A stretch of DNA of 64,000 nt from Escherichia phage VpaE1_ev78, in sequence record LR597663. One strand, given 5' to 3'. The notes under the pieces are model-generated. The model did no database searches and had not been told where the DNA came from. It saw only the letters and a program-made list of their open reading frames with translations. Each line of letters opens with the position of its first letter. Position 1 is the first letter of the stretch. The position numbers and the translations under genes were made by a program. Shown here piece after piece: positions 17,583 to 28,109 of this stretch.

Positions 17583-18935
17583 ATGTGGAATCCAATTGTT
17601 AATGTAGGTATTACATTGAACACCGCAGGAACTACAAGAGAAGGTTTTGGTTTGCCACTATTCTTAGCTTCAACAGATAACTTTGAAGAAAGAGTGCGTG
17701 GTTATACTTCCTTAACTGAAGTTGCTGAAGATTTCGATGAGAATACTGCTGCATATAAGGCTGCTAAACAACTTTGGAGTCAGACTCCTAAAGTAACTCA
17801 GCTTTATATTGGTAGACGCGCTATGCAGTACACTGTATCAATTCCTGATGAGGTTACTGAGAGCACGGACTACTCAATTACTGTAGCTGTCGGTGGGGGA
17901 ATGTCACAACCATTCCAGTACACCTCACAAGGTGAAGATACTGCCGAGAATGTATTACAACAGTTTAAAACACAGATTGAAGCTGACCAATCAATTAAAG
18001 ATAAAGTTTCAGTCAATGTTACTGGTAGCAACGGTTCTGCCACAATGGTCATCTCCAAAGCTGGTGACAATGATTTCGTGAAGGTAACCACTACAGCACA
18101 AACTGTGTCTATTGCAAGCACAACTGCTGATACAGCGTCAACTGCTCTGGCAGCTATTGAAGCTTATTCTACCGACTGGTATTTCATTGCAGCAGAAGGC
18201 AGAACTCAACAGTTTGTTTTGGCAATGGCTTCTGAGATTCAGGCTCGTAAGAAAATCTTCTTCACAGCTAACTCTGATGTAGCAGCACTGCAAGGTACAG
18301 AATTAAATAGTGCAAATGATGTTCCAGCACAGCTTGCTAAGAGTATGTATACTCGCACAGTTTGCTTGTGGCATCACACAGCGGCAGAAGATTATCCAGA
18401 GATGGCATATATTGCTTATGGCGCTCCATACGATGCAGGGTCAATTGCTTGGGGTAATGCTCAGTTGACTGGTGTAGCTGCTTCTTTACAGCCAGCTAAT
18501 AAGAGACCTCTGACAAGCATTCAGAAGTCAGCTTTAGATGTACGTCACTGTAACTTTATCGACCTTGATGGTGGTGTTCCAGTGGTTCGTAGAGGGATTA
18601 CTTCTGGTGGGGAATGGATTGATATCGTCCGTGGTGTTGACTGGTTAGAATCAGACCTGAAAACTTCTCTGAGAGACTTGCTAATTAACCAGAAGGGTGG
18701 TAAGATTACTTATGATGATACTGGTATTACCCGTATTCGTCAAGTCATTGAAACCTCTCTACAAAGAGCAGTCAACAGAAACTTCCTGTCATCTTACACA
18801 GTTAATGTTCCTAAAGCCTCTCAAGTTGCTTTGGCAGACAAGAAAGCTCGTATCCTGAAAGATGTTACCTTCGCAGGTATCTTAGCAGGGGCTATCTTGG
18901 ATGTTGACTTGAAAGGTACAGTGGCTTACGAATAA
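17583..18935 (+). CDS. tail sheath protein (putative)
   Basis: 450 aa; followed by 148-aa tube candidate, chaperone pair and tape measure in canonical contractile-tail order. Confidence 0.55.
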   Translation: MWNPIVNVGITLNTAGTTREGFGLPLFLASTDNFEERVRGYTSLTEVAEDFDENTAAYKAAKQLWSQTPKVTQLYIGRRAMQYTVSIPDEVTESTDYSITVAVGGGMSQPFQYTSQGEDTAENVLQQFKTQIEADQSIKDKVSVNVTGSNGSATMVISKAGDNDFVKVTTTAQTVSIASTTADTASTALAAIEAYSTDWYFIAAEGRTQQFVLAMASEIQARKKIFFTANSDVAALQGTELNSANDVPAQLAKSMYTRTVCLWHHTAAEDYPEMAYIAYGAPYDAGSIAWGNAQLTGVAASLQPANKRPLTSIQKSALDVRHCNFIDLDGGVPVVRRGITSGGEWIDIVRGVDWLESDLKTSLRDLLINQKGGKITYDDTGITRIRQVIETSLQRAVNRNFLSSYTVNVPKASQVALADKKARILKDVTFAGILAGAILDVDLKGTVAYE

Positions 18936-18950
18936 TAGAGGTAAATTGGA

Positions 18951-19397
18951 ATGGCTATGTATCAGCAATATTCCCCTAAAGACGTTGTATGTAGCTGGAA
19001 TGGTATTGCCATTGAAGGCTTTGCCCCAGACTCATTTTTACGTCTACAGAGAACATCACCACTTATCACACCAGTTGTAGGTGCAGGTGGTCAGGTTGCT
19101 CTGACAAGAAATGCAGACAAGACAGGTACTATTGAGATTGAGCTAATGCAGACTTCTCTCTCTAACCAGATGCTTTCTGCAATTCAAGCTAAACAAGACA
19201 ACATGGAACTTGAAGAAGATATCTCTTCTAACTTCGTAATCTACGACCCATCAGGCTCTGTTCTGGCAACTGGTATTAATGCTTGGTTGCAGGAATTACC
19301 ACAGATTGAACTTGGGCGTGACCAGAACTCTAAAACTTGGATTTTTGGTTGTGAGAAGCTAGACTACACTTCTACAATTCCAGCGTCAAGTGTTTAA
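18951..19397 (+). CDS. tail tube protein (putative)
   Basis: 148 aa ORF after sheath; strong terminator immediately downstream. Confidence 0.5.
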   Translation: MAMYQQYSPKDVVCSWNGIAIEGFAPDSFLRLQRTSPLITPVVGAGGQVALTRNADKTGTIEIELMQTSLSNQMLSAIQAKQDNMELEEDISSNFVIYDPSGSVLATGINAWLQELPQIELGRDQNSKTWIFGCEKLDYTSTIPASSV

Positions 19398-19410
19398 TAA
19401 ATCCTATAAG

Positions 19411-19442
19411 GGGGAGACTTTAAAAGGTCTTCCCCTTTTTTG
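19411..19442 (+). terminator. intrinsic terminator (GGGGAGAC...GTCTTCCCC plus TTTTTT)
   Basis: GC-rich hairpin and T-run after tube gene. Confidence 0.7.
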
Positions 19443-19470
19443 TTTCTTTTAAAAGTATTAAGGAATCACA

Positions 19471-19869
19471 ATGAAAACAGAATCTAAAGTAATTAATGGT
19501 AAGAAAGTAAATATCGTTCTGCTTGGGGCAAGAGATGGGATTAAGATGTCTATGAAGCTGGGTAAAATTGTTGTTCCAACATTTGCACAGATGCTGTCAA
19601 GTCTGACTGACAAGGGTAAGAAAGAAGCTCCAATGGTTCCATTTAAAGAACTTGTTGAAGCTTGTTTTGACAGAATTGAAGAAATTAACCTTGAAGAAAT
19701 GGCTACCCTGTTATTTCAAGGGGCAACTGTTGATGACTTCCCACTTAATATTGATACATACTTCCAAGCAAACTATGGTGAATTTATTGATTACTTAGCA
19801 TTTGCGCTGGAGGCAAACTTCGGAAGTTTTTTCGAAGCAAGCATTTTCAAAAGCCTAACTTCTCAGTAA
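19471..19869 (+). CDS. tail assembly chaperone (G-like)
   Basis: Position between tube and tape measure; contains slippery heptamer near 3-prime end. Confidence 0.55.
   Translation: MKTESKVINGKKVNIVLLGARDGIKMSMKLGKIVVPTFAQMLSSLTDKGKKEAPMVPFKELVEACFDRIEEINLEEMATLLFQGATVDDFPLNIDTYFQANYGEFIDYLAFALEANFGSFFEASIFKSLTSQ
19827..19833 (+). other. -1 programmed ribosomal frameshift site T_TTT_TTC (slippery heptamer)
   Basis: Heptamer in zero frame of 19471..19869 (codons AGT TTT TTC); the -1 frame is open from 19833 into ORF 19872..20111. Confidence 0.55.
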
Positions 19870-19871
19870 AC

Positions 19872-20110
19872 ATGGGTAACACTCTACAGACACCACTGAC
19901 TGATGCTGCTGTAGAGGCAACCTATGAAGAAGCAGACGAGATGAAATTTGTGCTTGCTATTTATGGTATGGAAGGGTGTAAAGAAACACTTGACCAACTC
20001 TTTGCTATGACATTCTCTGATTTATTATCATTGAGACAATTTCTTGAAATTCAGAGGTCGTATAAAGAGGAAATTGCTTACAACGAACTTAGAAGAGCAG
20101 GAAAAATGTA

Positions 20111-20111
<1 letters not shown>
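19872..20111 (+). CDS. tail assembly chaperone frameshift extension (GT-like C-terminal part)
   Basis: ORF in -1 frame relative to upstream chaperone, open across the junction. Confidence 0.5.

Positions 20112-28109
<7,998 letters not shown>

Follow-up and report, generated by a model that had tools for sequence, protein, structure and literature searches.

[quoted passage not shown] Positions are those of the window, i.e., the whole stretch of 64,000 nucleotides that was analysed, and the proposal is read from sequence. The original prediction that a −1 frameshift joins the two chaperone ORFs has been supported by the anatomy of the reading frames, by homology, by conservation, and by the joined coding sequences (CDSs) annotated in relatives. 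In fact, this frameshift is already known, being annotated in Felixounavirus and published for close relatives.

Gene order and reading frames at the chaperone locus

The phage from which the window derives is a Felixounavirus (a Felix O1-like myophage), the region being 95-97% identical to many Felixounavirus genomes, e.g., LF82P3, skuden, and Alf5. The genes are found in the order sheath, tube, G, T, and tape measure protein (TMP), with the chaperone pair between the tube and the tape measure genes. The features considered are the following:

17583-18935, + strand: tail sheath (phrog_205)
18951-19397, + strand: structural protein in the tube position (phrog_280, PF11681)
19408-19447, + strand: intrinsic-terminator-like hairpin with a T tract (13-pair stem, then TTTTTGTTT)
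19460-19464, + strand: Shine-Dalgarno sequence AAGGA of the G gene, 6 nt 5' of ATG 19471, as read from the sequence
19471-19869, + strand: tail assembly chaperone G, the zero-frame product, 132 aa (PF21822 Phage_TAC_15, phrog_1613)
19809-19813, + strand: GGAGG, internal Shine-Dalgarno-like sequence, 13 nt before the heptamer
19827-19833, + strand: slippery heptamer T_TTT_TTC, putative −1 shift site, in phase with the G frame
19833-20111, + strand: predicted −1-frame segment of GT, 92 aa plus stop, with ATG 19872 inside
19834-19866, + strand: dual-coded overlap, encoding EASIFKSLTSQ, the C-terminus of G (frame 0), and the predicted GT linker RSKHFQKPNFSV (frame −1)
19872-20111, + strand: T ORF, 79 aa (phrog_4963, "tail assembly chaperone")
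20111-22321, + strand: tape measure protein, TMP (phrog_4036, PF20155)

The assignment of both chaperone ORFs is supported by profile searches. G matches the Phage_TAC_15 family over residues 9-124 with 71 bits (cut-off 22; E = 1.7e-19), and phrog_1613 with E = 2.4e-48; T matches phrog_4963 over its full length (positions 1-79 of 79; E = 2.8e-55). In the Felixounavirus Bas63, the tube and the TMP have been assigned by cryo-EM to gp14 and gp17, respectively (PMC12609058), and the chaperone ORFs of that phage would be the genes located between these two. A ribosome binding site is annotated before G in Mushroom and Michonne, at the place equivalent to that of the AAGGA of the window. The hairpin lying between the tube and chaperone genes is kept in relatives, and the Michonne record annotates a terminator there; this element probably reduces the transcription of the downstream genes for the chaperone and the TMP. 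At the other end of the locus, the ATG of the TMP gene overlaps the GT/T stop codon as ATGTAATG (20106-20113), and therefore a ribosome that had shifted frame would terminate right on the start codon of TMP. Termination on G takes place 242 nt farther upstream, and a translational coupling from GT to TMP is possible.

The G frame reads TTT at 19828 and TTC at 19831, a phasing that makes of TTTTTTC the heptamer T_TTT_TTC, and both the position and the zero-frame phase given by the original prediction agree with the sequence. The same applies to its claim that the −1 frame is open into ORF 19872-20111: between a TGA at 19788 and the TAA whose last base is 20111 this frame has no stop codon, its open stretch starting at 19791 and including that ORF. 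The +1 frame is closed, being open only at 19859-19879. The distance from the heptamer to the stop codon of G, given originally as 35 nt, has been corrected to 33 nt when counted to the first base of the stop (19867), or 36 nt when counted to the end of the ORF. The G frame and the −1 frame overlap by 76 nt, a stretch running across the G stop, and T_TTT_TTC is the only canonical slip site within it; the other candidates in the overlap (ATT TTC and TTC AAA AGC) have been discarded, as no re-pairing is possible for them in the −1 frame.

The predicted GT protein corresponds to join(19471..19833,19833..20111) and has 213 aa, comprising residues 1-121 of G followed by RSKHFQKPNFSVNMGNT...GKM, and its linker RSKHFQKPNFSV begins with the codon CGA at 19833. 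An example of a −1-frame peptide encoded upstream of ATG 19872 is PNFSVNMGNTLQ..., and this same part of the frame includes the tryptic peptide PNFSVNMGNTLQTPLTDAAVEATYEEADEMK, which initiation at 19872 cannot yield.

According to the mechanism proposed, most ribosomes would translate 19471-19869 up to the stop codon and produce G, of 132 aa. A minority would slip with two tRNA-Phe, placed on TTT in the P site and on TTC in the A site (19828-19833); with both tRNAs moved back by one base and paired to T_TT T_TT, decoding would resume with CGA at 19833, and translation would continue to 20111 to give GT, of 213 aa. The last base of the heptamer is only C or T in the sequences compared, which fits the re-pairing of tRNA-Phe in the −1 frame. 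Heptamers of the type H_HH.U_UU.Y have been reported to rank with the −1 motifs of highest efficiency in E. coli, a statement made for the class (Sharma et al., 2014; PMC4066793) and applied here to T_TTT_TTC, the literal U_UUU_UUC being absent from that work. The heptamer would be the main determinant of the shift, and GGAGG may add stimulation. As for the function of the products, in lambda G and GT are made at a ratio of ~30:1, G binds the tape measure protein, T binds the tube protein, and neither of them is found in the virion (PMC5009743). By analogy with lambda, the shared G part would bind the TMP and the T part would recruit the tube protein, the frequency of slipping would fix the G:GT ratio, and neither protein would be expected in the virion. 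Searches of the literature on Felix O1-like phages and on tail-chaperone frameshifts yielded no experimental report of a GT fusion in Ounavirinae; one paper naming Felixounavirus together with a frameshift and a chaperone (PMC6669636) concerns rfaK mutations of the host and has no bearing on G/GT.

Conservation of the heptamer and of the −1 frame

The position of the heptamer alone is only moderately unlikely to arise by chance. Counted in any frame, the + strand of the window has 181 heptamers of the form XXXYYYZ with Y = A/T, together with 10 T6 runs. At these frequencies, the 76-nt overlap, with its 25 in-frame positions, would be expected to contain ~0.07 heptamers of this form and ~0.004 T6 runs. 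The position of the heptamer is suggestive, and the decisive case is that made by comparative conservation. The 181 heptamers observed compare with 258 ± 18 in mononucleotide shuffles, and among the 19 Phe-Phe dipeptides of window ORFs of at least 120 aa a single one, that of the heptamer site, is encoded as nnT TTT TTY. Both the deficit and this codon usage are consistent with slippery sequences being generally avoided where DNA is coding.

The original prediction had described the arrangement as a conserved one, and this has been borne out in two sets of sequences. The annotated relatives were picked so as to span all the matches obtained by tblastn with the predicted GT as query, and comprise Felixounavirus (Alf5, skuden, and Mushroom), Escherichia phage CL1, Mooglevirus (Michonne), Suspvirus (mistaenkt), Kolesnikvirus (phiEa21-4 and phiEa104), Yersinia phage P778, Pectobacterium phage Arno162, and the Vequintavirinae Av-05 and CR3. 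An in-phase heptamer and a long open −1 frame are present in all 12 of these phages, which belong to two subfamilies (T6 in 11 and T7 in CL1), and a TTTTTTY heptamer is kept in all 80 IMG/VR loci of the second set, related sequences being non-independent samples in both counts. In the named relatives, the −1 frame is already open ahead of the heptamer and stays so until the tape measure gene begins, with 227-278 nt of it lying past the stop of G. Even Av-05 and CR3, with 26-30% amino acid identity, keep both the heptamer and the open −1 frame, and over all the relatives examined both are kept down to ~25% protein identity.

The IMG/VR loci were retrieved with eight aligned G proteins as query; at 50% protein identity they fall into 19 clusters, and their local GC content is 0.38-0.64. 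All 80 carry nnT TTT TTY (TTTTTTC in 76 and TTTTTTT in four), a result that concerns codon choice and not the existence of members lacking FF, since the loci were selected by the amino acid motif [SC]FF. The −1 frame is open in them for 78-125 codons, and the codon preceding the heptamer is AGT, TCT, or TGT, with a final T without exception, also at loci where synonyms richer in GC would be the expected choice.

The conservation is concentrated at the heptamer and immediately after it. When 33 representatives are aligned without gaps, none of the six T columns varies, unlike the other third-codon positions nearby; at the protein level, Phe120 and Phe121 are invariant in the G family. Nucleotide identity to the window among six Ounavirinae reaches its maximum (0.87-0.90) at 19823-19850, a stretch taking in the heptamer and the beginning of the dual-coded overlap, and its minimum (0.39-0.50) at 19868-19886, around the stop codon of G and the start annotated for T. 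In agreement with this profile, the blastn match to Erwinia phages is confined to 19816-19856 (92.7%), and RSKHFQKP, a −1-frame peptide whose codons lie before the stop of G, is kept across four genera. A block of ~27 nt (19826-19852), formed by the heptamer and CGAAGCAAGCATTTTCAAAA, is near-identical across Felixounavirus, Mooglevirus, Suspvirus, and Kolesnikvirus, the G proteins of which share only about 42-80% identity; where G identity between genera is as low as ~42%, the block still shows ~93%, a conservation that can be explained by the dual coding of two conserved peptides.

A particular case is Escherichia phage CL1 (OK040806), in which the slippery run has T7 in place of T6 (L008:957-963), G and T being thus fused in frame. 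Its record contains a single annotated "tape measure chaperone" of 213 aa, with the junction GSFFRSKHF... and 99.1% identity to the predicted GT. Ion Torrent sequencing is prone to errors in homopolymer length. Since the CL1 genome was sequenced on this platform (PMC9156722), its T7 is likely an error of this kind, and the possibility of CL1 being a natural phage with an in-frame GT has been set aside in favor of that explanation.

Stimulators of the shift and alternative readings

The search for a downstream stimulatory structure, suggested originally as a check, detected none at the canonical distance in the window phage when 19834-19893 was folded: the energy is −3.4 kcal/mol (z = +1.17), and no stem-loop or pseudoknot is predicted 5-9 nt after the heptamer. 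Within the locus, the segment 4-48 nt past the heptamer ranks at the 86th percentile, most of the locus being more structured. The sole downstream hairpin starts 37 nt past the heptamer, and the fold of 100 nt is not significant (z = −1.76); a search of 19300-20300 against Rfam returned two sub-threshold, unrelated matches only. The efficiency of the shift may therefore be low, there being no 3' structure in the window. The absence of such a structure is no argument against frameshifting; the lambda G/GT shift reportedly needs none (Levin et al., 1993). Strong hairpins are present in 8 of 31 representative loci, several of which belong to distant GC-rich clades, and these are at or below the 10th percentile of their own locus. 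For example, locus L066 has a 9-bp stem (CCGCGAGCG/CGCUCGCGG) after a 7-nt spacer (z = −2.8; L066:1889-1915), and a spacer of 5-9 nt is the canonical geometry of ribosomal 3' stimulators (PMC5009743). Hairpins located 5-9 nt past the heptamer have been seen in L066, at homologous positions in L053 and L067-L091, and also in L049, L084, L074, and L064; within the L066 clade, the changes in the stem are of the G-U type only. Judging from these sequences, the 3' stimulator seems to be clade-specific and the heptamer universal.

On the 5' side, the GGAGG at 19809-19813 is a candidate stimulator that may act as in dnaX. The Glu codon located there is GAG in 27 of the 33 representatives compared and the sequence GAGG appears in 25 of them, all these being non-independent sequences (GAG accounts for 34% of the Glu codons of the window); GGAGG is missing in Kolesnikvirus, P778, and CR3. 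Stimulators of this type reportedly lie ~10-14 nt upstream of the shift site (Larsen et al., 1994). Their use has been described in dnaX and in many IS elements (PMC5009743). It is conceivable, if rather unlikely, that a non-canonical, sequence-specific stimulator (GGAGG or the block 19826-19852) sets the G:GT ratio of Ounavirinae, or else that felixounaviruses make G, GT, and free T, the latter through reinitiation at TAA-AC-ATG; if true, either a sequence-specific stimulator or the existence of three products would be a modest variation on the G/GT theme.

Other readings of the locus have to be weighed against ribosomal frameshifting. The production of G and T as two separate proteins, with T (79 aa) initiated at ATG 19872, perhaps by termination-reinitiation, and with no fusion at all, is highly unlikely. 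It would agree with the location of this ATG only 2 nt past the G stop (TAA-AC-ATG), with the in-frame ATG found soon after the G stop in Felixounavirus and also in Mooglevirus (Michonne) and Suspvirus (mistaenkt), and with the distinct CDSs annotated in Alf5, skuden, FelixO1, and others, as in most GenBank/RefSeq Felixounavirus records. However, no Shine-Dalgarno sequence can be read before ATG 19872 in the window, the region surrounding it is the least conserved of the G-T stretch, and its Met is not conserved, aligning with L, M, a gap, L, and E in other Ounavirinae and being absent in P778, Arno162, and Kolesnikvirus. Moreover, the annotated T starts of phiEa104, Av-05, and CR3, located 63-122 nt past the G stop, cut into the open −1 frame and drop part of it, which in phiEa104 includes sequence aligning as conserved, and two separate proteins would leave unexplained both the invariant in-phase T6 and the conservation of the −1 peptide encoded before the stop of G. 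The conservation profile, the peptide RSKHFQKP, and an ATG that is neither conserved nor preceded by a Shine-Dalgarno sequence indicate, taken together, that translation of the −1 frame begins at the heptamer and that T is not an independent gene; there is some possibility of a minor free-T product alongside GT in Felixounavirus.

Alternatively, GT might be produced by transcriptional slippage, with the RNA polymerase adding a U in the T6 run, perhaps with the participation of a nascent hairpin at 19807-19823, and the resulting U7 mRNA encoding GT. This is an established route to frameshifted products (PMC5009743), the T6 homopolymer comes after a weak hairpin and was flagged as terminator-like by a terminator scan, and the T7 DNA variant of CL1 encodes a fusion with the predicted junction; it is nevertheless very unlikely here. 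The bacterial cases involve runs of ~9 A or T (PMC5009743), compared with six in the window, and a run of seven T has been found in only four IMG/VR loci (two clusters at 50% identity plus two singleton clusters). The phase of the run with respect to the G frame is fixed in 19 of 19 clusters and its last base is C or T, as tandem slippage on the ribosome needs. The hairpin 19807-19823 does not covary (76.0% of cells paired vs. 76.3% in shuffles), upstream folding is not enriched in the family, and the 3' hairpins found at 5-9 nt in several clades act on ribosomes and not on RNA polymerase. This hairpin was also considered as a conserved element in its own right and rejected, since pairing is almost as good with the 3' partners slid by +1, and it has been treated as a by-product of the L-E-x-N-F-G codons. 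The heptamer could, lastly, be taken as a chance by-product of a conserved Ser-Phe-Phe motif with no recoding function, in line with the invariance of Phe120/Phe121 and with the expectation of ~0.07 for one heptamer in the overlap, but this is extremely unlikely: the synonymous codons AGC, TCC, and TTC are left unused at the site in the 80 loci, even at 60-64% GC, the other 18 Phe-Phe sites of the window avoid nnT TTT TTY, and an open −1 frame of 78-125 codons accompanies the heptamer in every locus.

Relation to known systems and consequences for annotation

Ribosomal frameshifting, the preferred reading, has already been annotated or described for phages very close to that of the window. Salmonella phage Mushroom (KP143762; Felixounavirus mushroom) has a tape measure chaperone CDS joined from two parts, and its site is identical in sequence to that of the window; Citrobacter phage Michonne (NC_028247; Mooglevirus) has a joined CDS with the note "ribosomal slippage". 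Mushroom, Michonne, and Moogle share with the window the same genes, the TTTTTTC, the −1 frame, and the junction, and differ from it only in strain-level substitutions. The genome announcements of Moogle and Michonne state that the chaperone is made with a −1 translational frameshift (PMC4319497; PMC4591319), and that of Michonne cites Xu, Hendrix & Duda 2004 for the frameshift of the chaperone.

The sequence traits of lambda-type systems (Levin, Hendrix & Casjens 1993; Xu, Hendrix & Duda 2004, 2013, 2014) are found together at this locus, i.e., the position of the genes, an overlapping −1 ORF, a phased X_XXY_YYZ, conservation, and a T without a conserved start or ribosome binding site. Lambda is a siphophage and slips on G_GGA_AAG, whereas the phage of the window is a myophage with T_TTT_TTC, and its G belongs to a different Pfam family (Phage_TAC_15). 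An example among myophages is phage P2, in which the proteins E and E+E' reportedly arise by a −1 shift on T_TTT_TTG between the tube and tape measure genes (Xu et al., 2004); both phages have in common a contractile tail and a T-rich heptamer, and differ in the last base of the heptamer and in the protein family. With E. coli dnaX and with IS3 and IS911, the window shares an X_XXY_YYZ heptamer and an upstream Shine-Dalgarno-like sequence (GGAGG in the window, a candidate stimulator), but these systems also use a 3' stem-loop or pseudoknot located 5-9 nt downstream, and none is predicted in the window. A sequence search of the PDB with GT found no relative among solved structures.

For annotation, the consequence is that records of Felixounavirus, Kolesnikvirus, and Vequintavirinae should carry join(G..heptamer, heptamer..T end). 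In most of them the T segment is separate, truncated, or missing (loci L001 and L002, and L012:1331-1444, L004:1569-1806, L010:1638-1853, and L011:1743-1925). Most public records, including the RefSeq ones of Alf5, FelixO1, and phiEa104, have a separate T without a joined GT CDS, several have a T truncated at an internal start codon, and phiEa21-4 has no annotated T gene. The site raises no new question on frameshifting or on tail assembly. On the other hand, T_TTT_TTY is invariant in every Phage_TAC_15 relative examined, from 38% to 64% GC, and this invariance makes the heptamer a reliable marker for the tube-chaperone-tape measure module in uncultured phages. Finally, two records with other host names, "Staphylococcus phage SA1" (GU169904; 147 kb) and "Campylobacter phage A132" (MG065664), contain Felixounavirus sequence that is 97-98% identical to the window, which looks like contamination, a chimeric assembly, or a wrong host assignment.
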